NCBI GenBank assembly: GCA_964194935.1
Contig: CAXMOL010000106.1
Coordinates: 2,058 to 66,057, forward strand
From: an uncultured Kiloniellaceae bacterium
GTDB taxonomy: Bacteria; Actinomycetota; Acidimicrobiia; Spongiisociales; UBA11373
Length of the DNA stretch: 64,000 nt
Direction: 5' to 3'
Shown here: positions 123 to 44,215 of the stretch, one piece after another
Numbering within the stretch: position 1 is the stretch's first letter
Layout of the letters: each line of letters starts with the position of its first letter
Program-made: the position numbers and the translations under genes
The notes under the pieces: model-generated
The model's database searches: none
Told to the model about the DNA's origin: nothing
What the model saw: only the letters and a program-made list of their open reading frames with translations

Positions 123-1103
123 ATGACGCAGTTCCTGCAAGGCGTGTCGGTGCCGGTACGTCCCGAGATTCCGACCGTGTTTGCTCGCGAGTGGTTGCGC
201 CTTGCTGCGCCGGGATCCGCTTGGGATGGGCGCCAGCGTGTCGAGATTGCTGCGGCGGCTCGGGCGTCTCGTCACGGCGCATTGGAGTCGGGCCCTTTCC
301 TGCCGGCTGTCGCCACTTCGGCCGCCGCGATGCTCGGGTCGACGCCGGGACGCGCTACTCGAATCTGGGCCGAGTCGGTCATTTCGACCATCGGCTCGAC
401 GGCATACGTGGAACTAGTCGGCGTGGTGGCCCGTGCATCTGCGGTCGATTCGTTCCATCGGTCGTTGGGGGCGACGGAGCCGACACTTCCTGAGCCCCAA
501 GCAGGTGAGCCGTCGGGAGAACAGGACCTCGCGGCCCGCCCCAGTGCAGCGTGGGTGCCGATGGTTGGTGGAGCATCGATCGTGCAGGCGCTTAGTGCGG
601 TGCCCTCCGAATCCGAGGCGCAGGAGGACATGCATGGGCAGCTCTACCTGACCTATGGACAAATGCAGGACCTGCAGTTTGTGCGTGGTCTTGCCAGGCC
701 GCAGATGGAGTTGGTGGCGGCGCGCACCTCGGCATTGAACGAGTGCTTCTACTGAGTCTTGGCGCACAGCCAGATGCTCCGTGCGAGCAGCGAAATCGCC
801 AACATACCTTTCGACCCAAGGTCCATCACGGACCCGTCGATCGATCCACTGCTCGCAGGCGGCCGGGCCCTTATACGGTTTACCGACGCAGCAGTCGGGT
901 CGGATGACCCCGCCGACGCCAGATCATTGCTGGCGGAGTTGCTGGGCTCTGCGGCGGTGGTGGACGCCGCCGGGGTAGTAGCCAATTTCGAAATGATGAA
1001 CCGCGTCGCCGAGGGGACCGGGATGCCGGTTGGTAAGGGGACTCTGGCTCGGACCGAGGAGTGGCGAATGCTCATCGGGCTCGATCGATACCGTCATGAC
1101 TGA
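123..1103 (+). CDS. AhpD/carboxymuconolactone-decarboxylase (CMD) family protein. The frame is continuous except for one in-frame TGA at 756-758, so this is a selenoprotein candidate or a pseudogene.
   Basis: ORFs 123..755 and 759..1103 are in the same frame and separated only by TGA. Across the junction the protein reads ...MELVAARTSALNECFY-[TGA]-VLAHSQMLRASSE, which matches the CMD/AhpD core motif ELV..R.S.iNGCxYCxxxH with TGA exactly at the second Cys. The true start may lie downstream of 123, because the N-terminal region is low-complexity Ala/Arg-rich. Confidence 0.5.
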
Positions 1104-1172: not shown

Positions 1173-2873
1173 CTATGCCGGTCGGTACGGCAGGTAGTAG
1201 GGCTCCCATGAAGCCCGGCTTACAGCAGCTACAGGGTCGAGCAGCGGCTCGGCGACGCCTTCGGCTACCGCGGCGTCGATGACGGCGAGGGCGACCTTGA
1301 GCGAGACGCCCCGCACGTCAGTGATTGCCGGGAACAGGCCCCCCTGTTTGAGGCGATCGTCGCTGACCTCGTTGGCGAGGGTCTTTGACGCAGCAAGAAA
1401 CATCCCAAGCGTTATGCGTTTGGCGCGAGACACGACGGCTCCGAGACCCACACCCGGGAAGACGAATACGTTGTTCGCCTGTCCGATCAGATGCCGGGTC
1501 CCGTCGTGGGTCACATCATCGAACGGACTGCCCGTGCCCACCAGCGCCCGACCCTCGGACCAGGCCAGGATGTCGGACGGCGTTGCCTCACTAAACGTTG
1601 TGGGGTTGGACAGAGGCATGACGATCGGTCGATCATGGGTCTTGGCCATGGTCCTGATCATCGGCTCGGTAAAGGTGCCCGGTTGACCGGTGACTCCGAC
1701 GAGGACGGATGGAGTATGGCCGCGGATGGTGGCCTCGAGATCGAGGAGGTCGCCCTGGCCTTCCCAGCCTGCGACGACGCTCGGCTGAGCGGCGAATTGG
1801 GCCTTGCGATCGTCGAGACCTTGACGGCCTGCCACGATCAGCCCCTTGCTGTCGGTGAGGATTATCCGTCGATGGGCCTCGCCGCGTCCGATCCCCTCTT
1901 GTTCCATGGCAGAGCGGATTTGGCGGGCGATCCCGATCCCAGCGGATCCGGCCCCAGCGATCACCACCCTTTGGTCGGACACGCGTTCGCCGAGCAGTCT
2001 CATTGCGGCCAGGAGACCTCCGACGACCATCGCTGCCGTGCCCTGGATGTCGTCGTTGAATGACGGGAGAACATCGCGGTACATATCGAGATGACGGAAC
2101 GAAGTCAGATTGGCAAAGTCTTCCCACTGCAGAATCGCTGCCGGGAAGACTCGCTGTACGGCCTCAACGAACTCGTCGACGAGTGACCAGTAGTCCGCGC
2201 CGCGCAAACGCGGTTGGCGAACTCCGAGATACAGCGGATCGTCGAGCAATTCCTCGTTGTTGGTTCCCACGTCCAGCGACACCGGCAGGCATAGTGAGGG
2301 ATGGATACCTGCCCCCGCCGTGTACAGCGCAAGTTTTCCGATCGGGATGCCCATCCCTCCGGCACCCTGGTCTCCGATTCCCAGGATCCGCTCGTTATCG
2401 GTTGCAACTATGACCGCCGCCTCCCGCATGGATGCGTTGCGCAGGAGCATGTCGATGCGTCCCCGATCTCCCGGGGTCACGTATATCCCGCGACCTCGGC
2501 GGAAAATCTTGCTCCAATGCCGACACGCCTCGGCAACTGTGGGGGTGTAGATGAGGGGCACAGTCGCGGTGAGGTTGTCGAGAATCGTCCGATAGAAGAG
2601 CGTCTCGTTGCGATCCTGTAGTCCGGCCAAGTAGATGTGCTTCTGGAGATTGGCTTCTTTGTGGGCGATCTGATCCAGGGCACGCTCGACCTGTTCGGCG
2701 AGCGTCGACACGTGGGTCGGCAGCAAGCCGAGGACGCCGAGCGATTCCCTTTCCTGAGCAGAAAATGCGGTTCCCTTGTTGAGCAGAGGCTCGTCCAGCA
2801 AATGGCGCCCCCGCTCGGCGACCGGTAGGTATCGCTCGCCCGTAACCGCGTCGATCGCTGGCTGGTAGCGCAT
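1173..2873 (-). CDS. NAD(P)-dependent malic enzyme (malate dehydrogenase, oxaloacetate-decarboxylating)
   Basis: 566 aa. The N-terminus has the LNKGTAFS malic-enzyme signature, Rossmann GAGSAGIGIA, and full-length similarity to the malic enzyme family. Confidence 0.9.
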   Translation of the reverse strand: MRYQPAIDAVTGERYLPVAERGRHLLDEPLLNKGTAFSAQERESLGVLGLLPTHVSTLAEQVERALDQIAHKEANLQKHIYLAGLQDRNETLFYRTILDNLTATVPLIYTPTVAEACRHWSKIFRRGRGIYVTPGDRGRIDMLLRNASMREAAVIVATDNERILGIGDQGAGGMGIPIGKLALYTAGAGIHPSLCLPVSLDVGTNNEELLDDPLYLGVRQPRLRGADYWSLVDEFVEAVQRVFPAAILQWEDFANLTSFRHLDMYRDVLPSFNDDIQGTAAMVVGGLLAAMRLLGERVSDQRVVIAGAGSAGIGIARQIRSAMEQEGIGRGEAHRRIILTDSKGLIVAGRQGLDDRKAQFAAQPSVVAGWEGQGDLLDLEATIRGHTPSVLVGVTGQPGTFTEPMIRTMAKTHDRPIVMPLSNPTTFSEATPSDILAWSEGRALVGTGSPFDDVTHDGTRHLIGQANNVFVFPGVGLGAVVSRAKRITLGMFLAASKTLANEVSDDRLKQGGLFPAITDVRGVSLKVALAVIDAAVAEGVAEPLLDPVAAVSRASWEPYYLPYRPA

Positions 2874-2939: not shown

Positions 2940-3881
2940 TTACTGCTGACTGGCGAGGCGTCTGAGCGCTGCTGATAAATCTTGATGCAAGAGCCGAACC
3001 GATTTGGCCGGCCAGGTCTCGGATTCTGCTCGAAGAAACGACGTCCGGTCGGTGCGGTTGTCGAAGCGCTGTATCGGGATGTCGATCGATCCGATCGGGA
3101 TCGTCCCGGGAAGACGGGCCTCGGTCTCGAGCCAGACCATGTCGTCGGTTCCGTAGTTCTGAAGCATCACCTCTTCGGGAACTCCGTGGTGCAGAATCGA
3201 GGCGTCACCTTCTTTTCCCGGCATCGCCCGATCCCGGTTGCGCCGCCGACTTTCCGCCGGTTCCACCCAGACGTAGAGGATCGAGCATCTCGAGCGAATC
3301 TCACCGGCCAGTGCACCGATTGAGGAGGCGTATCCGAGTGGGTGGGGGAGCGGTAGGTCTGCGCCCTGGGGCCCGCCTCTGGCGAACTCGATGACGACCG
3401 TGGAGCCCTGGTCGGCTCTTTTGATTGGTTGAAGGTTGGCCACGTCGTCGGTGATCTGGAGTTCGACAGCTTTGCGGACTCGTCGATCGAGCGCTTCGAA
3501 AGGTGCAGCAGTACCGGCAAGGACTCGGGCCCGATCGAAGCGATGCAGCAATTCCGATGGGGACTGCTTGTGCCCTCCGGCTCCCACCATCAATGAGAAG
3601 TCCTCGTTCAGGAGGTGGATGAGCGTCAGCCAGTCGTTGGGATCTAGCCAGGGTGATTCGTCGGATTCGAAGAAGACCGGGTCTTCTCCCAGCGCCCTCA
3701 ATTCCTCGGAGATTCGGCGCATGAGGTGGACATATGGGTAGTCGTCGAGTTGAGCCGTGGGGCCGAGCGCCATGTCCCGAAGAGCGGAGGACGGGTCGAG
3801 ATGATCGAGATATCGGCGCACCTCCGACTTGCCCGACGCCGGCAGCGCCAGCAATAAAAGGACGTCGATTGGATCTGGCAC
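2940..3881 (-). CDS. Hypothetical P-loop NTPase/kinase-like protein
   Basis: 313 aa ORF with an N-terminal Walker-A-like LALPASGKSE. No further family is recognisable from sequence alone. Confidence 0.45.
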   Translation of the reverse strand: MPDPIDVLLLLALPASGKSEVRRYLDHLDPSSALRDMALGPTAQLDDYPYVHLMRRISEELRALGEDPVFFESDESPWLDPNDWLTLIHLLNEDFSLMVGAGGHKQSPSELLHRFDRARVLAGTAAPFEALDRRVRKAVELQITDDVANLQPIKRADQGSTVVIEFARGGPQGADLPLPHPLGYASSIGALAGEIRSRCSILYVWVEPAESRRRNRDRAMPGKEGDASILHHGVPEEVMLQNYGTDDMVWLETEARLPGTIPIGSIDIPIQRFDNRTDRTSFLRAESETWPAKSVRLLHQDLSAALRRLASQQ

Positions 3882-3912
3882 GGTGCGATGATGCCATGCT
3901 CGTGATGGTCAC

Positions 3913-5103
3913 ATGCTGAAATCGCAACAGATGAGAAAACGGATCGCTCTCCATCTGTCGGTTCTGATCATCGGCGGCGCCGTGATCAGAGTCGCTGTTG
4001 TTCCCGCTGAGGTTTGTCCTCCAGTGACGGCACTCGAGGTTTCTGCCTCTATCGAGGCCGCCACGACGTGGCTGGTCGGGGGAATGGCCGACGATGGCAC
4101 GTACACCTATGGCTTCGATCGCAACGAAGATGTCATCAATCAGGGCTACAACTACGCCCGACATGGCGGTGTCACCATGGCGCTCTATCAGGCGTACGAG
4201 GTCATCGGTGATCCCGACCTCCTTGCCGCGGCCGATAGAGGGCTGGCTCACGCCCTCAACGACATAGTCGAGCACGGTGGCTGGATGGGATGGCAGCCCG
4301 GCGGGGATATCCCGCTCGGCGCCAACGGTTTGCTGTTGGCGGCGCTTTCGATTCGACGTAGGGCCACCGGCGACCCGATTCATGATGAGTTGATGCGCGG
4401 CATTGGCCGGTTCTTGGTGGGCCAGCAACAGGAGAACGGGAGCATCTTTGCCTCCTGGGACATCCGTGCGGAAGAGCCGCGGGAGTCGTTCGGTCCGTTT
4501 GCCACCGGTGAGGCTGCGTGGGCACTTGCCCTACTCGATCGTCAGATGCCGGGCGAGGGGTGGGGAGACGCAGCCGGGCTGACCCTTGACTACATGGGTG
4601 AGGACCGCAACCGCCTTGAAGGCTACGCCACAAGCCTGCCTGATCACTGGGCTGCATATACGGTCAGCGATATTCGCCCCGATCTGCTCACGACGGGCCG
4701 CGTTGAGTACGCCAGGCGCCTCGCCGGCTATTTCGGGATTCGGTTGCGGTTCGAGGCGCAGCGCCGTGGGGACGGGATCAACCTCTGGTTGCGTTGGTAT
4801 CCGGGTCCACCAGCAGGGGTTGGCACAGCCGGTGAGGGGATTGGGGCACTGCATCGGCTCAGCGTCGAGGAACCGCGTCTGGCGGATCTGACCGCGGCGA
4901 TTGAGGAGCGATTGGTGTGCACTGCCGGGTTCATGGTCCGGCGTCAGATCTCGGCAGACGAGGCCACTGGTGGGGCGACGACGTCACTGGAGTCGGGAGC
5001 CTGGTTCTATCGGGGCTATACCCAGATGGATGATCAGCAGCACGTGTTGTCGGCGCTTCTGTCGGCGCTTCCCGTGCTGGAGGCGATGGAGGAGGTTGGA
5101 TGA
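3913..5103 (+). CDS. Hypothetical membrane-anchored protein, possibly with an alpha/alpha-toroid (prenyltransferase/squalene-cyclase-like) repeat fold
   Basis: 396 aa. An N-terminal hydrophobic segment (LHLSVLIIGGAVI) is followed by Gly/Trp-rich repeats (GGWMGWQPGG, QQQENGSIFASWD, GEAAWALALL) resembling QW-type toroid repeats. The start may be the second ATG at 3931. An ATGA overlap with the next gene suggests translational coupling. Confidence 0.45.
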   Translation: MLKSQQMRKRIALHLSVLIIGGAVIRVAVVPAEVCPPVTALEVSASIEAATTWLVGGMADDGTYTYGFDRNEDVINQGYNYARHGGVTMALYQAYEVIGDPDLLAAADRGLAHALNDIVEHGGWMGWQPGGDIPLGANGLLLAALSIRRRATGDPIHDELMRGIGRFLVGQQQENGSIFASWDIRAEEPRESFGPFATGEAAWALALLDRQMPGEGWGDAAGLTLDYMGEDRNRLEGYATSLPDHWAAYTVSDIRPDLLTTGRVEYARRLAGYFGIRLRFEAQRRGDGINLWLRWYPGPPAGVGTAGEGIGALHRLSVEEPRLADLTAAIEERLVCTAGFMVRRQISADEATGGATTSLESGAWFYRGYTQMDDQQHVLSALLSALPVLEAMEEVG

Positions 5104-5663: not shown

Positions 5664-6533
5664 ATGAAAGAGTTCTCGCTCATCGGCGTGCCTTTTGACG
5701 GCGCTGCAACGCTAGGCAGGCCTGGATCTCGATACGCACCGGACGAGGTGCGGCGCCACCTCGACTGGATGAAGATGCGGGTCGAGGACGGTCAGATCTA
5801 CTGGATAGATCGTGACGAGATCGTGCCCTTTGAACCGAGCGCCTTGCATGACGTCGGCGACGCTTCTGTGGTTCCGCATGACCTTATGGCGACGATCGAG
5901 GCGACCCGTTCCAAGGTGAGGGGAGAAGCGAAGAACGGTCGAGTACCGGTGGTGATCGGAGGCGACGACTCGGTCTTCTTCCCAGCCGCAGCCGGGGTCC
6001 ATGACGCCGTCGGAGGGTCGGTGGCGATTGTGCACTTCGATGCCCATCTCGATTTGCTCGACCACAGCGAGTCCCAAGGCACTCACAGCCAATCGAGCGG
6101 GATGAGGCGATCACTCGAGTTGGACCGGGTAGATGCCCGACACTGTGTCCAGGTCGGTACCAGGAACTTCAACTTTCCGTCATCCAAGCTGTTTATCGAC
6201 GAGATCGGACTCACCGAACTCACCGCCACGAAGGTTCTATCGCAGCCCTCTGAGGCGACGGTGGAACAGATACTCGGGGTCATCGGCGACGCAGATCATC
6301 TGGTGGTATCGGTCGACATCGACGTGCTCGATCCGGCGTTCGCTCCGGGAGTCGGCTGGCAGGAGCCGGGCGGTCTGTCGTCGCGCCTGCTGCTCGATCT
6401 GATGCTGCCGCTGGCCAACCGTGCGGACGGGTTTGCACTAAACGAGGTCAATCCGATGACGGATCAAGGGTCGCAAACGACGATCCTTGCAGCCAACCTC
6501 GTGTTCCAGTTCGTGGTGGCGGCCGGGCTCTAA
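5664..6533 (+). CDS. Arginase-family ureohydrolase (agmatinase/formiminoglutamase-like)
   Basis: Metal-binding motifs of the arginase fold are present: GGDDS (GGDHS-like), HFDAHLDL and SVDIDVLDP. Confidence 0.8.
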   Translation: MKEFSLIGVPFDGAATLGRPGSRYAPDEVRRHLDWMKMRVEDGQIYWIDRDEIVPFEPSALHDVGDASVVPHDLMATIEATRSKVRGEAKNGRVPVVIGGDDSVFFPAAAGVHDAVGGSVAIVHFDAHLDLLDHSESQGTHSQSSGMRRSLELDRVDARHCVQVGTRNFNFPSSKLFIDEIGLTELTATKVLSQPSEATVEQILGVIGDADHLVVSVDIDVLDPAFAPGVGWQEPGGLSSRLLLDLMLPLANRADGFALNEVNPMTDQGSQTTILAANLVFQFVVAAGL

Positions 6534-33056: not shown

Positions 33057-33845
33057 CTAGCCGGCCTTGCGCTTGGCCTTGGTGGCCTCGACGCTGGCTT
33101 TTAGCGCTTCCATGAGGTCGACGACGCCGGTTGGCTGTGGCGCACTCTGTGGCCCGACGATCTCCTCGCCCTCCATTTTGCGCTTGGCAAGTTCCTCGAC
33201 CGCCTCACGGGATTCGTCCACCCATTCCTCTGGATCAAATGGTGTGGTGAGGTTGTCGATGATCATTTCGGCCATCTTCAATTCCTGATCGCTTACTTCG
33301 GTCTCAGCCTCCAGCTCTTCGAAAGCCGGTTCGCGGATCTCATCCGGCCAGTACATCGTTTCCATAACGATGACGCCTTCCTCGGCGCGAAGCGTCGCTG
33401 GGTATTCGCGCTCTCGGATTGCCACTCTGGCGAGGCCGACCATGTCTCGTTCGGCGAGGGCACTCACGAGGATTTTGTACGCCTTTACGCCGGTCTGTTC
33501 AGGAGCGAGGAAGTACGAGGCGCGGTAGTAGATGGGATCGATCTCTTCGGACTTGACGAACTGGATCACATCGACCAGCCCGGAGCCCTTGGTCCGTAGC
33601 GCCTGGGCCAACTCCTCGTCGGTGAACACCACGTAGCGGTCCTTTTCGATCTCGTAGCCCTTCACGATGTTCTCAAACGCGACTTCCTCGCCGTCGCTCT
33701 CGGCGACCCGCTTGTAGCGGACGCGAGCGTGATCGCCGTCTCGCAACTGGCGAAACTTTGGCCGCTTGTTCTCGGTAGCCGTATAGAGGCCGACCGGGAT
33801 CGTCACCAGGCCAAAGGAAATGGCACCCTTCCAGATCGGTCGCAT
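33057..33845 (-). CDS. ku: Ku protein (non-homologous end-joining DNA-end-binding protein)
   Basis: 262 aa from ATG 33845: MRPIWKGAISFGLVTIPVGLYTATE... is the canonical bacterial Ku N-terminus, with a C-terminal Lys-rich tail. The upstream 79 codons of the tracked ORF are unlikely to be coding. Confidence 0.9.
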   Translation of the reverse strand: MRPIWKGAISFGLVTIPVGLYTATENKRPKFRQLRDGDHARVRYKRVAESDGEEVAFENIVKGYEIEKDRYVVFTDEELAQALRTKGSGLVDVIQFVKSEEIDPIYYRASYFLAPEQTGVKAYKILVSALAERDMVGLARVAIREREYPATLRAEEGVIVMETMYWPDEIREPAFEELEAETEVSDQELKMAEMIIDNLTTPFDPEEWVDESREAVEELAKRKMEGEEIVGPQSAPQPTGVVDLMEALKASVEATKAKRKAG

Positions 33846-33977
33846 CGTGGATCTCCGAATCGTGAAGGCTCGGATGATACGCGTCAAGACCACTCTGATA
33901 CGGTTCCGCCTTCGCGACCCGGAGACCACTTGGACACCACGGTTCCCGCACTCGACGGCTCCGCGCCGCCGCAGACG

Positions 33978-34706
33978 ATGGATCGCAAGACGCTGATTGT
34001 CTTCGTTTCGGCGACACTGTTGATGGTCGTATTCAACTATTGGGGCCTGCCTTCTCGATTTGCCGGCACCAGCTTCCATCAAGGAGTCGCCGACAGACTC
34101 GGCGAGGGATATAGCGCCTACTTCTTGTTGTTGCCGTACCAGTACTGGGGTGTTTCCAGCTTGGTCATCAGGGTCGTTGCCCCGCTGGCGGTGATCACGA
34201 TCATCCTCCGAGAATCACCACGCGATTGGGGTTTTCGCCTCAGTGGACAGTGGGAGCACCTACGTCCCTATGTGTGGTTCTTGGCTGCGATGGTCCCGGT
34301 CTTGTTCTTGGCGTCTTCGCTCGGAGCGTTCCAGGCGAAGTATCCGCTCTATTCGTTTGCCGTCGAAGGCGGGTGGCATTTCTGGGGTTACCAACTGTTC
34401 TATGGAATGCAGTTCCTCGGGTTGGAAGCGTTTTTCCGGGGTTTCCTGGTGTTCGGGCTGTATCCGCGGCTCGGCGTTTACGCGGTCCCGGTCATGGTGA
34501 TCCCGTACACGATGATCCACTTCGGCAAGCCGGCTCCCGAGACGTTTGCGGCCGTAATCGCCGGATTCATCCTTGGCTATCTGGCGCTCAAGTCGCGTTC
34601 GTTCCTCTGGGGATGGATGCTCCACTGGGGGGTGGCGATCACGATGGACCTGCTTGTGATCGGCCGTGAATTCGGCTTTGGCAACATACGCCGAATCATC
34701 TTCTAG
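33978..34706 (+). CDS. CPBP-family intramembrane metalloprotease (CAAX protease / Abi)
   Basis: Multi-TM protein with EExxxR-type motif 1 (GLEAFFRGFLVFGL) and later conserved His motifs (...IHFG..., ...HWG...). The start is chosen at ATG 33978. Confidence 0.8.
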   Translation: MDRKTLIVFVSATLLMVVFNYWGLPSRFAGTSFHQGVADRLGEGYSAYFLLLPYQYWGVSSLVIRVVAPLAVITIILRESPRDWGFRLSGQWEHLRPYVWFLAAMVPVLFLASSLGAFQAKYPLYSFAVEGGWHFWGYQLFYGMQFLGLEAFFRGFLVFGLYPRLGVYAVPVMVIPYTMIHFGKPAPETFAAVIAGFILGYLALKSRSFLWGWMLHWGVAITMDLLVIGREFGFGNIRRIIF

Positions 34707-38864: not shown

Positions 38865-39135
38865 TCGTACGGTCCTTTTCCTACGCACGCTCTGACCGCC
38901 GCGGGTAGGTTCGGGATCCGAGACGGACGCAAGGGAGCCTCGGGCACCAACGCTGGCGCGCTGCCGGTGGTGCTGGGGTTCATGGGGTGGGACCCGATGA
39001 TCGAGATCTGCGAGTTTTGGAACGCCCTATGGAACGACGCCTGGGGAACCTGGGATGGTCTGTGGTTGTTTCAGGTCCGACAGCGGCCGATAGATCGAGC
39101 CCTGAGCGAGCCCCGCTTCGTCGAGGTGCTGGGAC

Positions 39136-39504
39136 TTGGCTAGTCGGATTCCCGGGTTCGGGAGCCTGGTCTTGGTCGCCGCGGTGGCCATTTCGGCTTG
39201 TGGGGGAGGCGAATCCGTCGCCGTAGATGTCCCCGACGATGCCACCTTCTGCTCGGTGTTCTTGGGCGAATACAAGGCTGCTTTGAGTGACGCCGTGGCG
39301 GCCACCGACGCCGGGTTTGATGCTGCATCGGCTCGAATCAACGCCTGGGCCGAGGTATTGGTCTCGCTCGCTCCGGAGGAGATTGGTGTTCAGTCCAAGG
39401 ACAATCTGTTGTATCACCAAGCCCAGGCGGATCTTCTCTCGGCGGCTGCGTTCATCCCGGGGAGCAATGAGATGCATGCTTGGGCCAATGCCAACTGCGG
39501 CTAG
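39136..39504 (+). CDS. Hypothetical lipoprotein
   Basis: TTG start. Signal peptide GFGSLVLVAAVAISAC with a lipobox-like AISAC, a small Ala-rich mature domain, and a C-terminal Cys. Confidence 0.5.
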   Translation: MASRIPGFGSLVLVAAVAISACGGGESVAVDVPDDATFCSVFLGEYKAALSDAVAATDAGFDAASARINAWAEVLVSLAPEEIGVQSKDNLLYHQAQADLLSAAAFIPGSNEMHAWANANCG

Positions 39505-39537
39505 CCCTTCAAGATCCGCCTAGCCCGGGGAATCGAG

Positions 39538-41166
39538 TCAGGGAGAAGGCCGTTTCATGATCGGCTGCAGGAACCGTGCGCTGCGCAATGGTTCGGCGGC
39601 GGCGGCGGCGAGCACCCCACCGCCGAGTGCTCCCGCAATTCCGGGCGCAGACGCGTCGGCGCCCCCAAGGTAAAGGCCCTTGACCTCGGAGCGGGGGACA
39701 AGGGACTGGTCGGCAAATCGCTCCGGTGCTGTCCCGAGCCCATAGATCGAACCTTGTGGCGATGCGGCGAAGTGGTTGGTCGATAGCGGGGTCGACATCT
39801 CGACGTGATCAACGAATGGGGCGAGATCCGGGTATTCGTCCAGGTATTGCTGCAACAGTCGGTCGGTGAGTTCCGTTTTGAACGCGTCGTATTCGGCCCC
39901 CCGCTTTTTCCATCGGCTGCCCTGCCACCGACCAAACGCATCCCAGGGAACGAATGTGATTGCCTCACCCGTGTTTCGTAGCTCCGGCCCCGGGTCGTGC
40001 TGGGGATCCTTGAGTGACGGGAAGCTACAGAACATCACCGGCGTGCGACCGGGGGTGCGATCCGGATCTACATCCCACCCTGCAATCTCCATGTCCCAGG
40101 AGTCGTAGTACCACTGGCAGTACCGCTTGGCACCCTTGGCGCCTATGTCGCCCTTGAATCCGATGTACAGACTGACGTGTGCCGGACCGGCCTCGCGGTA
40201 CGGTGCCTGAGAGCCAGGCAGGCCGGCTTCGAGCAAGTTGGATGTGGGGATCGCTCCTGCAGTGCTGATGACCCGTTTGGCGGCGATTTCGGCGCCACTT
40301 GCCAGGCGGACACCGGTGACCGTTCCCCGTCGGGTGACGATTTGATCGACTGTGTGGCGTACGGCCGTCCATCCGCCCCCGTCGGCGACCGTCGTCAGGA
40401 GAGCCGGCGCGATGCTGGAAGCACCGCCGACCGGGTAGTAGGCGCCGTGTAGGAAGTGGCGCACCATGAGCGCGTGCATCGCAAAAGAGGACCGGGCCGG
40501 GGTGGCCCCGTAATACCCCCACTGGGCGGCGAGGACGGCTCGGAGGCGGGGGTCCGAGGTGAGCGATGCCAGGACTTCAGCCGTAGTCGCGCTCATGTAC
40601 TCCTGGGCGGTTGCTGTGGCCCGCTTACGGCCGCTCGTGGGCAGCAGGCGCGGCATGGCTCGAACCTGCAGTGCTTTGGCTGTCGAGCGGGCTGCGGTGC
40701 GGGTAATCATCAGGTACTCGTCAACGGCGCTGCGTTCCTCGGGAAACGCGTCTATCAAGGTCTCGCGAAACGCCTCCGGCGTATCCGGAAGTTGGATTGA
40801 GAAGCCATCGGGAAAGTTGAATTCGTCGTAGAACTCCCCAACCGGCTGCCACTGGAGACGCCCGTCGGTCAGTGTCTGGAGCAGGCGACCCGGATAGCTC
40901 GCCTCGGACATCTCACCCACGATGTGTACTCCGACATCCCAGCGATATCCGGGTCGCTTGAACATCTGAGTGAAGCCGCCGGGGATGTTGTGCTGTTCCA
41001 GGACGAGGACCCTTCGCCCCAGTTTGGAAAGCATTGCTGCAGACGCCATTCCGCCGATGCCGGACCCGATGACGATGTAGTCCCAGGGGCCGTCTGGAAT
41101 CTCATGACTCCACGGTCGGTTTGGCTGGTCGGTCAAGCGCCCCCGGCAGGAATCGAACCTACTCAT
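39538..41166 (-). CDS. FAD/NAD(P)-binding oxidoreductase of the phytoene-desaturase (CrtI/retinol-saturase-like) family
   Basis: N-terminal dinucleotide-binding DYIVIGSGIGGMASAAMLSKLGRRVLVLEQ...GG, and a C-terminal ...LYLGGADASAPGIAG... typical of CrtI-family amine-oxidase-fold enzymes. The first 11 codons of the tracked ORF lie inside a duplicated tRNA 3'-end fragment, so the true start is probably the downstream TTG (LTDQPNRPW...). Confidence 0.8.
   Translation of the reverse strand: MSRFDSCRGRLTDQPNRPWSHEIPDGPWDYIVIGSGIGGMASAAMLSKLGRRVLVLEQHNIPGGFTQMFKRPGYRWDVGVHIVGEMSEASYPGRLLQTLTDGRLQWQPVGEFYDEFNFPDGFSIQLPDTPEAFRETLIDAFPEERSAVDEYLMITRTAARSTAKALQVRAMPRLLPTSGRKRATATAQEYMSATTAEVLASLTSDPRLRAVLAAQWGYYGATPARSSFAMHALMVRHFLHGAYYPVGGASSIAPALLTTVADGGGWTAVRHTVDQIVTRRGTVTGVRLASGAEIAAKRVISTAGAIPTSNLLEAGLPGSQAPYREAGPAHVSLYIGFKGDIGAKGAKRYCQWYYDSWDMEIAGWDVDPDRTPGRTPVMFCSFPSLKDPQHDPGPELRNTGEAITFVPWDAFGRWQGSRWKKRGAEYDAFKTELTDRLLQQYLDEYPDLAPFVDHVEMSTPLSTNHFAASPQGSIYGLGTAPERFADQSLVPRSEVKGLYLGGADASAPGIAGALGGGVLAAAAAEPLRSARFLQPIMKRPSP
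41132..41160. repeat. 29-nt direct repeat copy of the tRNA-Arg 3' end plus 6 nt of flank (att-like scar)
   Basis: gtcaagcgcccccggcaggaatcgaacct at 41132-41160 is identical to 41271-41299. The latter covers the 3' acceptor/T-arm of tRNA-Arg (41277-41349, minus strand) plus gtcaag of flank. Confidence 0.85.
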
Positions 41167-41276
41167 GGGGTACCGAGCGAAGCGAGGTTCGTTGGTCGTG
41201 ACGTCGAGCCCGGATAGGGCTCGAAAGGATGCGACCCCTCGGCCGGTTGGTCGGGCTTTGTGTCCGCTCTGTCAAG

Positions 41277-41349
41277 CGCCCCCGGCAGGAATCGAACCTG
41301 CGCACCCGGCTCCGGAGGCCGGTGCTCTAATCCCCTGAGCTACGAGGGC
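41277..41349 (-). tRNA. tRNA-Arg (anticodon CCG)
   Basis: Reverse complement GCCCTCGTAGCTCAGGGGATTAGAGCACCGGCCTCCGGAGCCGGGTGCGCAGGTTCGATTCCTGCCGGGGGCG folds as a cloverleaf. Acceptor GCCCUCG/CGGGGGC, D-arm GCUC/GAGC, anticodon stem CCGGC/GCCGG with loop CUCCGGA (CCG), T-arm GCAGG-UUCGAUU-CCUGC. CCA is not encoded. Confidence 0.85.
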
Positions 41350-43087: not shown

Positions 43088-44215
43088 TCACCGGTCACGA
43101 CTCTTGGTAATGGCGGGCTTGTCTGCCGTCTGCAATGCCCGGGAGAATCGCAGGATTGCGGTGAAGATGTCGGCCACCGAATCTTCCGAAAGGCCCCGCT
43201 CCTTGGCCCACTGGCGGCGCTGTTCAAGCAGTGCCTGCTCGCGACTCGGATCGCGCACCGATCGTCCGCTCTCAGACTTGAAACGGCCCGCTCGGTCCAC
43301 CAGATGGCTTCGCTGAGCCAGGAGTTGGACGATCTCCGCGTCGACTTCGTCGATCAAGTCCCGCGTCTTCATCAGTTCTGGGGCTTGATCGCCCAGGTCG
43401 GGGATGGCGAAGGCAGGCGAGGCGGCAGAACCTGAGGATTCGATCTCCAGCTCCTCCAATTGGCCGTGAACCAGCAATAGAGAATCGAGCAGGGCTTGAC
43501 GGGCGTCGGCGGCGAAAGGATTGTCTCGCTCGATCGCCAGGAAGAGATGACTTGCATCGCCACGGACGGATTCGATCGTCTGTCCGAGGGCCTGGAATGA
43601 AGGCGGGGAGAAGGCCAGGTCTTCGGCTGCTCCGATATCGATGAGTCCCTTGGCGATGAAGAAAGCCATCGCGTGGGTGCGAGCCATCAATCGATCGTGT
43701 TCGAATTCGGGCTGCTCGATGACTTGGCATCCGATTCGTTCGTACAGGCGGCGGGCCCTTTGCGCTGCCCGCGGCTGAAGCTCGTTGGGGCAGACCACGG
43801 CTCGCAGCGGTCGTTCGCCGCGGGCGATGTTGGTCGGACCAAAGAGCGGATGAGTTCCCGCCCATTCAACGTCGGCACCGAGTACGTCGGTCATCGCCTT
43901 TATGGGACCCACCTTGACGCTGCCCACATCTATCACTAGTTGGCCCTCGCGCAGGAGGGGTTTGAGATCAGTGAGCGCTGCTCTGATCTGACCAACCGGC
44001 GTGGCCACCACAACGACGTTCGCCTTGGCGACCAGCTCGCTCAAGTCGGTGGTCCCTAGCTCTTGGGGTGGTTCGACGAACGGGTCCCACGCTCGGACGG
44101 CGACTGGCGTCGCGAGCAAGAGTTCCGATAGGGCGCGGCCGAAATGACCGAATCCGACGATGGCGACTGATGTGTCGGCGGGCATTTCTCCGAGTCTCTT
44201 CGGTGGTCGCTCCAT
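43088..44215 (-). CDS. Prephenate dehydrogenase with a C-terminal AroQ chorismate-mutase domain (PDH-CM fusion)
   Basis: N-terminal Rossmann VAIVGFGHFGRALSEL and a prephenate dehydrogenase core. The C-terminal roughly 90 aa (...ELMKTRDLIDEVDAEIVQLLAQRSHLVDRAGRFK...DPSREQALLEQ...) is AroQ-type chorismate mutase. The start is M1 (44215) or M11 (44185). Confidence 0.8.
   Translation of the reverse strand: MERPPKRLGEMPADTSVAIVGFGHFGRALSELLLATPVAVRAWDPFVEPPQELGTTDLSELVAKANVVVVATPVGQIRAALTDLKPLLREGQLVIDVGSVKVGPIKAMTDVLGADVEWAGTHPLFGPTNIARGERPLRAVVCPNELQPRAAQRARRLYERIGCQVIEQPEFEHDRLMARTHAMAFFIAKGLIDIGAAEDLAFSPPSFQALGQTIESVRGDASHLFLAIERDNPFAADARQALLDSLLLVHGQLEELEIESSGSAASPAFAIPDLGDQAPELMKTRDLIDEVDAEIVQLLAQRSHLVDRAGRFKSESGRSVRDPSREQALLEQRRQWAKERGLSEDSVADIFTAILRFSRALQTADKPAITKSRDR

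Follow-up and report, generated by a model that had tools for sequence, protein, structure and literature searches.

The locus examined here raises a simple question: why is the 3′ end of a tRNA-Arg(CCG) gene present twice, once within the gene itself and once at the start of a protein-coding open reading frame, with only 110 nt of gene-less DNA in between? In the window, by which we mean the whole 64-kb stretch of DNA that was analysed, the 29-mer GTCAAGCGCCCCCGGCAGGAATCGAACCT has exactly two copies and no other match at up to three mismatches, and no such pair was expected by chance in 100 shuffles. This confirmed the first-pass annotation, which had reported the two exact copies and placed one of them at the tRNA-Arg 3′ end. 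The 29-mer takes in the final 24 nt of the tRNA, starting with 3 nt of the 5′ T-stem strand, continuing over the T loop and ending with the 3′ acceptor strand, and then 5 flanking nt (TTGAC).

The two copies delimit a 139-bp unit with the order tRNA end, a variable part A, a conserved part B and the tRNA-end copy (Table 1). At the proximal junction the tRNA is intact by ARAGORN and Rfam (64 bits), and in our alignment it is 100% identical across all four related species groups. On the 5′ side of the distal copy, the sequence bears no relation to the tRNA body. The copy is followed by T(T/A), as the tRNA gene is, and not by CCA; it is therefore a copy made at the DNA level, and we rejected a retro-origin from the mature tRNA. 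The arrangement has the anatomy of an attL/attR pair at a tRNA T-arm and 3′ end, as had been proposed.

Table 1. Features of the tRNA-Arg(CCG) locus, in window coordinates.
Feature	Position	Strand	Basis
tRNA-Arg(CCG) gene, intact	41276..41349 (Rfam RF00005: 41277-41349, 64 bits)	-	ARAGORN, Rfam, alignment
Direct repeat 1: last 24 nt of the tRNA (T arm and 3′ acceptor strand) plus TTGAC	41271..41299	-	
Spacer part A, 47 nt, opening with the TTGAC of repeat 1; fast-evolving	41229..41275	-	
Conserved module B, 68 nt	41161..41228	-	nhmmer, alignments, conservation
Palindrome/hairpin HP1, TCGAGCCC-TATCC-GGGCTCGA	41204..41224	-	
Motif CC(TCGCT)2CGG within B	41173..41187	-	
Direct repeat 2: copy of the tRNA 3′ end plus TTGAC	41132..41160	-	
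Remnant of a second part-A copy, now oxidoreductase codons 3-8	41113..41131	-	
FAD-dependent oxidoreductase (amine-oxidase/CrtI-like), likely coding sequence of 532 aa from TTG 41136-41134	39538..41136	-	Pfam, homologue N-termini, alignments with L085 and L084
"Third look-alike", a chance resemblance outside the feature	39508..39536	.	

We then considered what the distal copy means for the protein. As the first-pass annotation noted, repeat 2 is read through as residues 2-11 (RFDSCRGRLT) of the longest open reading frame, 39538-41166 on the minus strand, annotated as a 542-aa protein starting at ATG 41166. The protein matches PF01593 and PF13450 in Pfam and is named "all-trans-retinol 13,14-reductase" in some sources; ahead of its N-terminal Rossmann GxGxxG lie the conserved RPWSHEIPDGPWDY of the family and a short Met-Thr start. 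Compared at their N-termini, 60 homologues follow the pattern M-T-x(n)-RPWSHEIP, which fits the in-frame TTG at 41136, and the 10-residue extension from the ATG is not a family feature. In the related locus L085 (related loci are given L numbers throughout), ATG ACC GAC CAG aligns to TTG ACC GAC CAG of the window. The last 5 nt of repeat 2 supply this TTG and the following AC, and the G-run of the repeat lies 4-8 nt upstream of the TTG.

A genuine coding fusion, with translation from ATG 41166 and the tRNA-derived segment serving as a functional N-terminal extension, would be in keeping with the frame between ATG and TTG, which is open in the window, L081, L095 and L096, and with ATG being a stronger start than TTG. 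Against it, the extension is absent from all other homologues, in L082 and L097 the ATG frame is closed by a stop after 11-12 codons, the ATG at 41166 has no purine-rich Shine-Dalgarno sequence before it, and the only two changes within the 10 extension codons are both non-synonymous (S to T and C to Y). We regard the coding fusion as distinctly unlikely. The fusion of repeat and N-terminus that had been claimed is most likely an over-call of the open reading frame, with translation starting at TTG 41136, and the extension MSRFDSCRGR is probably not translated. The same over-call is found in several related assemblies (P0002, P0125 and P0126).

A further proposal, that the oxidoreductase is itself a cassette bounded by degenerate tRNA ends, did not survive. 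It relied on a third look-alike at 39514-39527, whose best gapped alignment score of 11 was equalled in 40 of 6394 windows; this look-alike is confined to the closest strains, and its resemblance to a tRNA is no greater in relatives. The GC content of the gene is only slightly raised (0.63-0.67 versus about 0.60-0.62). Downstream synteny is kept, and relatives with the tRNA but no repeat extend to about 75% DNA identity. We thus rejected the cassette: the third repeat is a chance resemblance and the gene is long resident.

Comparison with about 15 related metagenomic loci showed that the unit itself comes and goes. Four loci (L090, L091, L092 and L094), obtained from other samples than the window, have an empty site of the form tRNA...GGGGGCGCT|TCTGTAAGAC...; in argS and the oxidoreductase their identity to the window is 96%, and they represent conspecific strains. 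Empty and occupied alleles (L082, L083 and L097) differ by exactly one repeat plus the spacer, and the distal flank of the empty alleles is shared by the occupied L097 and L082/83. The length of the repeat varies: it consists only of the 25-26-nt tRNA end in the occupied type-I alleles (L082 and L097) and spans 59 nt in L095 (57/59 identical). The window corresponds to the L095 allele minus 21 nt (AGAGCGGACACAAAGCCCGAC). In L095, and at the tRNA-Pro loci L089 and L104 described below, the repeat continues beyond the tRNA for 35-48 nt of locus-specific flank, including the local terminator hairpin. The segments between repeats measure 14, 51, 110, 113 or 122 nt across loci; all of them are tiny, an outcome that kilobase-sized elements decaying at random would not produce. 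Several direct repeats of a tRNA 3′ end occur at one spot in the alleles L089 and L101.

Four species-level groups, at 84-87% DNA identity, also carry the unit, and the pattern of substitutions in B matches this grouping. The first-pass annotation had suggested comparing the locus in related strains, and had reasoned that a segment conserved, invariant and coding would be a coincidental or ancient fixed duplication. This refuting condition held only by half: the segment is conserved in four groups, yet it is present or absent among strains and is not needed as coding sequence. The alignments indicate that the unit is old and vertically inherited, with B and the copy under constraint. A passively decaying scar is not supported, and the best reading is that of an old insert that has been retained and is still polymorphic. 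In an ArgS-anchored scan of GTDB genomes, the nearest species (64-71% identical) lacked both the oxidoreductase and the module; the tRNA-argS pair was conserved, and an independent duplication was found (L004). The possibility that the structure is an assembly artefact or a pseudo-tRNA gene comes to mind, as the source resembles a metagenome-assembled genome and repeats can mislead assemblers. The same structure is, however, shared by at least seven independent contigs and ARAGORN and Rfam find no second tRNA, and we consider the chance of either to be close to negligible. Since independent NCBI, ENA and JGI assemblies agree, the structure is not an assembly artefact.

What, then, does the spacer contain? 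ARAGORN found no second tRNA there and Rfam gave no tRNA match in 41100-41275 at E ≤ 10, which agrees with the first-pass annotation. No Rfam family matched the spacer and its overall fold is not unusual (z = -1.5); we rejected a pseudo-tRNA or a known RNA family on these grounds. The strong hairpin that had been pointed out is real (HP1 in Table 1). Divergence between groups is 0.31 in A, 0.08 in B and 0.04 in the tRNA-end copy, compared with about 0.39 at third codon positions, so that B has evolved about 4 times more slowly than A, and B plus the copy about 4-8 times more slowly, during vertical descent. The HP1 stem sequence is kept in the Arg-locus copies and in L089/L100 and is degenerate in L104; L096 carries one compensatory change in it, from T-A to C-G. 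The motif CC(TCGCT)2CGG is identical in L104 and takes the form CC(TCCGC)2TCCGG in L089/L100. A second small helix of B covaries from A-T to G-C between its Arg and Pro versions; covariation in B is minimal, with two pairs, and 8 of 500 shuffles reached the observed score.

Other candidate functions and origins for parts of the spacer were tried and rejected. No promoter-like site was found in it, and the sole terminator-like match lies on the opposite strand within the poorly conserved A, with none on the tRNA (minus) strand; we set aside a promoter or terminator function for these reasons. A tRNA-like minihelix formed by the end of B and the copy fails on inspection because the CCCC/GGGG pairing is not conserved (L096 has GCTCC). 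An 11-nt match of A to the tRNA of L001, which might have marked A as an older, decayed tRNA end, was not significant against shuffles. The ends of the unit, TTGACAGAG... and ...CCCCATGAGT, are not inverted repeats on inspection, and the spacer element occurs once in the 64 kb.

B is not confined to tRNA-Arg. With nhmmer, homologues were found behind the tRNA-Pro(CGG) gene of a further two Acidimicrobiia species (L089/L100, E ~1e-11; L104, 6e-6). In L089 and L104, B abuts a repeat of that tRNA-Pro's own 3′ end, forming exact direct repeats of 80 and 58 nt with spacings of 154 and 171, respectively; L100 has the order tRNA-A-B and no distal repeat. The palindrome of B is 26/27 identical between the tRNA-Arg and tRNA-Pro loci of different genera, and A is unrelated; B has therefore either moved or far exceeds any known trailer in constraint. 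B lies about 47-50 nt from the tRNA end at the tRNA-Arg locus of the window and at the tRNA-Pro locus of L089/L100, and about 69 nt from it in L104. No gene was found downstream of the tRNA-Pro loci. The recurrence of B at this tRNA in other species lay beyond the reach of the first-pass annotation, which was made from the letters of a single stretch.

The repeats themselves also share a boundary. All independent 3′-end repeats (those of the window clade, L004, L089, L104 and L101) begin within a few nucleotides of the 5′ edge of the T-stem and run through the tRNA end, and these start points are site-specific rather than random. The second unit extends for 29 nt in the window, 59 nt in L095, 58 nt in L104 and 80 nt in L089, and a second B was never seen. 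B and the repeats are not obligatorily linked, because L100 has B but no distal repeat, and L101 and L004 have repeats but no B; B is absent from the L090-type conspecific strains and from L085, L101 and L103.

We searched for a recombinase or an intact element that could account for the unit. An integrase or other recombinase gene was found neither in the interval bounded by the repeats nor within 10 kb in the window, nor in the 2.5-6 kb flanks of related loci; the neighbours in the window are argS, tyrA, hom, thrC, rho, the oxidoreductase, a CobW-like gene, ADH, an aminotransferase and Ku. Searches of IMG/VR, GenBank phages and PLSDB plasmids yielded no intact relative of the module. In IMG/VR, two hairpin patterns and the tRNA-Pro end each gave 0 matches, two matches to the 3′ motif were dismissed as chance, and the 24-nt tRNA end matched 11 contigs, which carry phage tRNA genes or unremarkable att halves at tRNA-Arg(TCT), without B. 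The spacer had no match in PLSDB or GenBank phages, where only phage tRNA genes were matched. No autonomous element was among the matches listed, an absence that is weak evidence as the metagenome collection also missed loci known to match (L082/83).

Given how the repeats are built, the existence of both empty and occupied alleles, vertical inheritance under constraint and the presence of B at another tRNA, we favour, with about an even chance of being right, the reading that the 139-bp unit is a miniature non-coding insert with att-like flanks, generated by T-arm-specific recombination and not a gene island. A recombinase specific to the T-arm/acceptor part of the tRNA, as a tyrosine integrase is, would have made the unit: the incoming DNA would bring its own tRNA 3′ end, rebuild the tRNA and push the old end downstream. 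What remains, or all that was ever inserted, would be att-flanking DNA only, which would make the unit a miniature element without an integrase. Later local rearrangements would have produced a second partial unit and then the 21-nt deletion, setting the distal repeat directly against the oxidoreductase, whose start would now be a TTG made by the last bases of the repeat, with the tRNA-derived G-run in the Shine-Dalgarno position. Excision is predicted to yield a 139-bp circle with the junction …CCCCATGAGT-AGGTTCGATTCCTGCCGGGGGCGC-TTGACAGAGCGG…. B may be a binding arm for the recombinase or an accessory protein, or may have been co-opted by the host.

That neither a recombinase nor an intact relative was found within the scope searched speaks against a recombinase origin and would suit a local tandem duplication without a mobile element, arising at the T-arm hairpin through replication slippage, through unequal crossing-over or through the repair of a break. 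Such a duplication would have left about 1.2-1.5 copies of a 139-171-bp unit, in the manner of the repeats at E. coli tyrT considered below; empty alleles would arise by recombination between the repeats, and B would be a native trailer element, as the tRNA-A-B order of L100 suggests. Repeats that take in the locus flank, over 59 nt in L095 and exactly in L104 and L089, suit a local duplication no less well than they suit an attP/attB identity block, and in our own reading of the alignment the distal flank of L090 and L097 opens with sequence loosely similar to the start of A. The duplication reading fares worse with the site-specificity of the events: all breakpoints lie at the T-stem edge in at least three to four independent events, the second unit ends before a second B in all three B-bearing repeat structures, and the repeat of the type-I occupied alleles is confined to the tRNA end. 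It also leaves the near-identity of the B palindrome between tRNA-Arg and tRNA-Pro genera, next to an unrelated A, to be accounted for, and we think it rather doubtful.

The constraint on B during descent points to a host-level function outside the recombination model. Under a third possibility, compatible with either origin, B with or without the copy would be a functional non-coding element of the tRNA unit (a stable 3′-trailer RNA, an insulator, a terminator without a U-tract or a protein-binding operator) and the repeats would be secondary. The slow evolution of B and the copy, the near-invariant palindrome stem, the covarying second helix and the fixed spacing of B from the tRNA at the tRNA-Arg locus of the window and the tRNA-Pro locus of L089/L100 would all fit. 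They must be set against the lack of an Rfam match, an unexceptional fold, covariation that shuffles can equal, the dispensability of B in L090-type strains and its absence from three other loci, the lack of a promoter-like site or of a terminator-like site on the tRNA strand, and the absence at the tRNA-Pro loci of a downstream gene to regulate. We judge this explanation unlikely.

The 139-bp unit can be compared with known systems. Elements that integrate into tRNA genes (prophages, genomic islands, and integrative and conjugative elements of actinomycetes such as pSAM2 and SLP1) likewise leave a 3′ tRNA repeat running from the T arm past the gene end with the tRNA intact, and their empty and occupied sites likewise differ by one repeat plus the insert; att identity blocks in Actinobacteria are usually 25-112 bp long. 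Here, in contrast, the repeats stand only 110 nt apart, integrase, excisionase and cargo are all lacking, and the unit is old, vertically inherited and partly constrained, with no autonomous relative found. CIMEs, described in streptococci, are att-flanked remnants of integrative elements without recombination genes. They resemble the unit in their att-like flanks, in lacking a recombination module and in their possible mobilization by an integrase acting in trans. The unit, however, is an order of magnitude smaller than known CIMEs, no related ICE or IME was identified, and the same arm B occurs at two tRNA genes, each with the matching tRNA end.

At E. coli tyrT, 178-bp repeats, each beginning with the last 19 nt of tRNA-Tyr, reportedly lie downstream of the gene. 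They share with the loci studied here a partial tandem unit that opens with a tRNA 3′ end and is of comparable size (139-171 bp here), but here there are 1.2-1.5 units, the module is present once and a homologous module stands at another tRNA in another genus. Miniature inverted-repeat transposable elements (MITEs) and REP-like elements are likewise short, non-coding, strongly palindromic and polymorphic for presence; our unit, unlike them, is single-copy in 64 kb, is always tied to a tRNA 3′ end, and has neither terminal inverted repeats nor a short target-site duplication (a MITE has inverted ends and a 2-10 bp target duplication; the duplications here span 25-80 nt). In Dehalococcoides, tandem direct repeats of the ssrA 3′ end are reported to separate genomic islands (PMC3146451). 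Multiple 3′-end repeats gather at one hot spot in L089 and L101 as well, but the Dehalococcoides repeats bound kilobase-sized islands with integrases, whereas the intervals here are 14-122 nt.

Copies of a tRNA 3′ end are a standard signpost for islands and prophages. Here they bound only a 110-nt gene-less interval, which nonetheless holds a conserved module that varies in presence among strains and recurs behind a second tRNA gene in other species. For annotation, the locus teaches that a new ribosome-binding site and TTG start can come from an att-type repeat, and that longest-ORF calling then yields a spurious "tRNA-encoded" N-terminus. Should the module prove to be mobilised in trans, this uncultured and streamlined actinobacterial lineage would hold a minimal substrate for a tRNA-targeting recombinase, and island-finding tools that rely on such repeats would have reason for caution. 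More tentatively, and with considerable doubt, B may define an undescribed family of gene-less integrative elements of about 110-170 bp in Acidimicrobiia. Each would consist of a conserved arm of about 70-80 nt (a palindrome and pentamer repeats) joined to a copy of the 3′ end of the tRNA gene it lies behind, sometimes with the terminator, and would be moved in and out in trans by a T-arm-specific recombinase encoded elsewhere; in a variant of this reading, B would be a hitherto unknown element of tRNA trailers, either a structured RNA or a site for protein binding, and the repeats would result from its spread. If the gene-less family is real, its members would be for integrases what MITEs are for transposases.

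The 3′ end of the tRNA-Arg(CCG) gene is duplicated, as the first-pass annotation had noticed: a 29-mer, GTCAAGCGCCCCCGGCAGGAATCGAACCT, occurs in two exact copies in the window, with no further match there at up to three mismatches and none expected by chance. Read in the tRNA sense it is AGGTTCGATTCCTGCCGGGGGCGC followed by TTGAC, and it spans three bases of the 5′ strand of the T-stem, the T loop, the 3′ strands of the T-stem and acceptor stem, the discriminator region and five flanking bases. The spacer between the copies comprises a variable part, A (47 nt, counting the TTGAC of the tRNA copy), next to the tRNA and a conserved module, B (68 nt), next to the distal copy. This distal copy lies in the reading frame of the longest minus-strand ORF, which traverses it.

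Coordinates of features in the window and at related loci
Feature	Locus	Position	Strand	Remark
tRNA-Arg(CCG)	window	41276-41349	-	sole tRNA in 64 kb; Rfam 64 bits
29-mer, tRNA copy	window	41271-41299		
29-mer, distal copy	window	41132-41160		
A	window	41229-41275		
B	window	41161-41228		
Palindrome	window	41204-41224		within B
Longest ORF	window	39538-41166	-	542 aa
Oxidoreductase CDS	window	39538-41136	-	probable
In-frame TTG	window	41136-41134	-	
Upstream ATG	window	41166	-	
Third look-alike	window	39514-39527		chance resemblance
ORF, 165 aa	window	38980-39477	-	no Pfam match
ORF, 122 aa	window	39136-39504	+	probable gene
Chorismate mutase / prephenate dehydrogenase	window	43088-44215	-	bifunctional
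Ku homologue	window	33057-34082	-	PF02735, 6e-50
Truncated tRNA-Arg	L093	about 540-560		
Microsatellite	L090	2946-3000		
Microsatellite	L082	about 5850-5910		
Microsatellite	L104	about 3700-3760		
Microsatellite	L103	about 3840-3920		
tRNA 3′-end copy	L004	within 1339-1409		
tRNA-Pro(CGG)	L089	5928-6004		
Duplicated hairpin unit	L101	4310-4530		

A protein search recovered the window's own oxidoreductase and relatives at 75–92% identity. Using the relatives' contigs and the DNA identity of their flanking genes to the window, we defined four groups: group 1 (96–97%), in which the window and L095 are occupied by the unit and L090, L091, L092 and L094 are empty, and the occupied groups 2 (L081 and L096; 84%), 3 (L082 and L083; 87%) and 4 (L097; 86%). 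Among the outgroups, in L085-87 (about 75% DNA identity) an unrelated 188-nt spacer separates the tRNA from the oxidoreductase and there is no tRNA-end copy, and L084 (protein P0005, 81% protein identity) has the oxidoreductase without an adjacent tRNA. All occupied loci share the order tRNA-Arg, about 47 nt of A, 68 nt of B and a 24–26-nt tRNA-end copy. In the empty loci, which belong to the window's species, the tRNA ending in GGGGGCGCT is followed directly by TCTGTAAGACGCGATTAGCG...GGCAAGGGGTGAATT-GTG. A flank of this kind also follows the distal copy in L097 and L082/83, so that a single repeat and the 110-nt spacer account exactly for the difference between empty and occupied alleles, as is classically seen when DNA is inserted or excised at a direct repeat. 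The structure recurs in at least seven independent contigs, which rules out an assembly artefact. Separately, the related locus L093 has a tRNA-Arg gene without its 5′ half, joining GATGCGCTGC to TCCGGAGCC, in which ARAGORN finds no tRNA; either variation in the population or misassembly may account for this. Heptanucleotide microsatellites, such as (GCGATTA)2(GCCATYA)2-3, (CATGGCT)4 and (CAGCTGT)2(AATGCGC)2(GATACGC)2, also lie beside tRNA loci and differ in copy number among strains.

The tRNA end had been described as fused to the oxidoreductase N-terminus, which is most likely an over-call of the ORF. The enzyme, FAD-dependent and amine-oxidase/CrtI-like, has its Rossmann motif from residue 29 of the 542-aa form, and the N-termini of 60 close and distant homologues read M-T-x(1-10)-RPWSHEIPDGPWDY. 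An in-frame TTG in the window yields MTDQPNRPWSHEIP, and ATG ACC GAC CAG of L085 (81% protein identity, repeat absent) aligns base for base to TTG ACC GAC CAG of the window. Upstream of the conserved residues RPWSH, the only possible starts are this TTG and an ATG that falls within B. In L082/83 and L097, the oxidoreductase begins at a GTG of its own, farther downstream, and the ATG frame closes after 11–12 codons; the 10 "extra" codons show only two substitutions, both non-synonymous. On these grounds the TTG-initiated frame is probably the real coding sequence, a call we make with good confidence, and, with like confidence, the last five bases of the repeat would give the start codon, with the G-run CCGGGGGCGC in the Shine-Dalgarno position. 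Initiation at the ATG is the less probable option. The apparent fusion is most likely an artefact of annotation, arising from the repeat's present role as source of the start codon.

Near this start, L095 has a second partial A after the distal copy, matching the first tRNA-end-plus-A at 57 of 59 bases and fused in frame to RPWSH to give ...RGRLTERTQSPTDQPSRPW. The window equals L095 minus 21 nt, AGAGCGGACACAAAGCCCGAC, a short form common to L081 and L096. Such secondary rearrangements would explain why the repeat touches the oxidoreductase in the window. Strains that are at least 84% identical thus use three different sequences to encode the N-terminal tail, in keeping with the way its length varies within the oxidoreductase family.

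Across the four groups, between-group divergence was 0.31 in A, about 0.39 at oxidoreductase third codon positions, 0.08 in B and 0.04 in the distal copy (two singleton changes). Substitutions in B track the host groups, so the unit is inherited vertically, and the spacer does not look like a decaying scar. The hairpin annotated in the spacer is a perfect palindrome in B, TCGAGCCC-N5-GGGCTCGA, whose stem is unchanged save for one compensatory T-A to C-G in L096; B also holds the motif CC(TCGCT)2CGG. Covariation in B, examined by RNAalifold and pair counting, was weak (two pairs; 8 of 500 shuffles reached the observed score), and the spacer fold was unexceptional (z = -1.5). The spacer contains no pseudo-tRNA, in agreement with the first-pass annotation, and Rfam found tRNA-Arg only. 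The spacer has no promoter-like site, and its only terminator-like match is on the strand opposite to that of the tRNA (minus). Similarity of A to a tRNA end, as a hidden older copy, was not significant.

One metagenome scan with the palindrome located L089, in which tRNA-Pro(CGG) is followed by 48 nt of local flank with a terminator-like hairpin, a B homologue (likewise 68 nt; 26 of 27 bases identical across the palindrome) and a distal repeat consisting of the exact tRNA-Pro 3′ end plus the 48-nt flank (80 nt, spacing 154). Contigs with an identical neighbouring CorC gene provided two further alleles: L100, with tRNA-A-B and no distal repeat, and L101, which lacks B and shows a tRNA-Pro end of slightly altered sequence 51 nt downstream of the gene. 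A sister species is represented by L104 and L103. The former combines tRNA-Pro with a B homologue (nhmmer 6e-6), in which CCTCGCTTCGCTCGG matches the window exactly, and with a 58-nt exact repeat comprising the tRNA end and the local terminator hairpin; the latter has neither B homologue nor tRNA-end repeat. At L004, a distant tRNA-Arg(CCG) locus (67% ArgS identity) where B is absent, only 14 nt separate the gene from an independent 28-nt tRNA 3′-end copy, which has a single mismatch, located in the T loop, and precedes a terminator-like hairpin. All of these repeats begin no more than a few bases from the T-stem 5′ edge. Between L089/L100/L101 and L103/L104, tRNA-Pro and its downstream module have opposite orientations with respect to the CorC and asd genes that flank them. 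Downstream of tRNA-Pro, L101 has a tandem duplication of a unit of about 90 nt that includes a hairpin (…CTCCCATTCCGATGGGAGGGGGTTGGGGGGAGGGCAAACCCCTGGACA); L100 has this unit once. The two B-bearing tRNAs have mutually complementary anticodons, CCG and CGG, probably a coincidence with only two loci.

ArgS-anchored GTDB loci place the window in an uncultured member of the Acidimicrobiia (Actinomycetota). The closest GTDB species representatives (only 64–71% ArgS identity) keep the divergent tRNA-Arg(CCG)/argS pair, and the oxidoreductase is in none of them. The unit's surroundings in the window consist of housekeeping genes, with argS, tyrA-CM, hom, thrC, rho and prfA to one side and, to the other, the oxidoreductase, a small convergent gene, a CobW-like gene, ADH, an aminotransferase and Ku. 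In the window and L097, argS and hom are separated by the bifunctional chorismate mutase / prephenate dehydrogenase gene; the two directly adjoin in the conspecific L090/L091 and in L081, L082 and L096, a single-gene presence/absence polymorphism beside the tRNA locus. Since relatives' gene calls put a 117–122-aa gene opposite the 165-aa ORF and convergent with the oxidoreductase, the plus-strand ORF is probably the real gene. The proposal that the oxidoreductase is a cassette bounded by degenerate tRNA ends was rejected, the look-alike beyond its 3′ end being a chance resemblance. In IMG/VR, contigs L107, L109 and L111-L114 carry isolated tRNA-Arg(TCT) 3′ halves, from anticodon loop to 3′ end, with the same 24-nt terminus as the window tRNA and unrelated to B; their appearance is that of ordinary phage attachment sites, with the anticodon loop as the target.

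A site-specific process that targets the T-arm and acceptor end of tRNA genes is favoured by three features: repeats that always begin in the T-stem, an intact tRNA, and empty and occupied alleles that differ cleanly. Tyrosine recombinases that integrate at tRNAs behave in this way; in Actinobacteria, as with pSAM2 and SLP1, the sequence held in common with the target runs from tens of bp to about 100 bp. That B recurs beside the distal repeat at two different tRNAs suggests a conserved arm of the attachment region, in which case the complete unit would be a miniature derivative without an integrase, comparable in logic to CIMEs, although far smaller. The att-type reading of the repeat is reasonable, on repeat anatomy and alleles; a decaying scar is not supported, given the conservation of B. 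An origin as a simple decayed island is further argued against by the lack of an integrase within 10 kb of the repeats in the window or of any recombinase nearby, by the failure to find an autonomous relative in IMG/VR, GenBank phages or PLSDB plasmids, by intervals of only 14–122 nt, by repeats that in some cases reach into locus-specific flank, by the separate occurrence of B and repeats, and by the constraint on B in vertical descent, which would imply some function.

The main rival to such site-specific integration is local duplication, analogous to the E. coli tyrT repeats. The Ku homologue shows that the organism has non-homologous end joining, which could bear on the origin of short duplications with filler DNA. 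Either origin, integration or duplication, would accommodate a functional tRNA-trailer element. A mature tRNA is an unlikely source through retro-origin, since CCA is missing from the Arg copy. The unit is 139 bp, gene-less, old, strain-polymorphic and partly conserved, and belongs to a small family at two tRNAs in Acidimicrobiia. Att-type repeats as such are already known; the conserved mini-module, so far as our checks reach, is undescribed, and if the unit is indeed a miniature element, the finding would be substantially more interesting.
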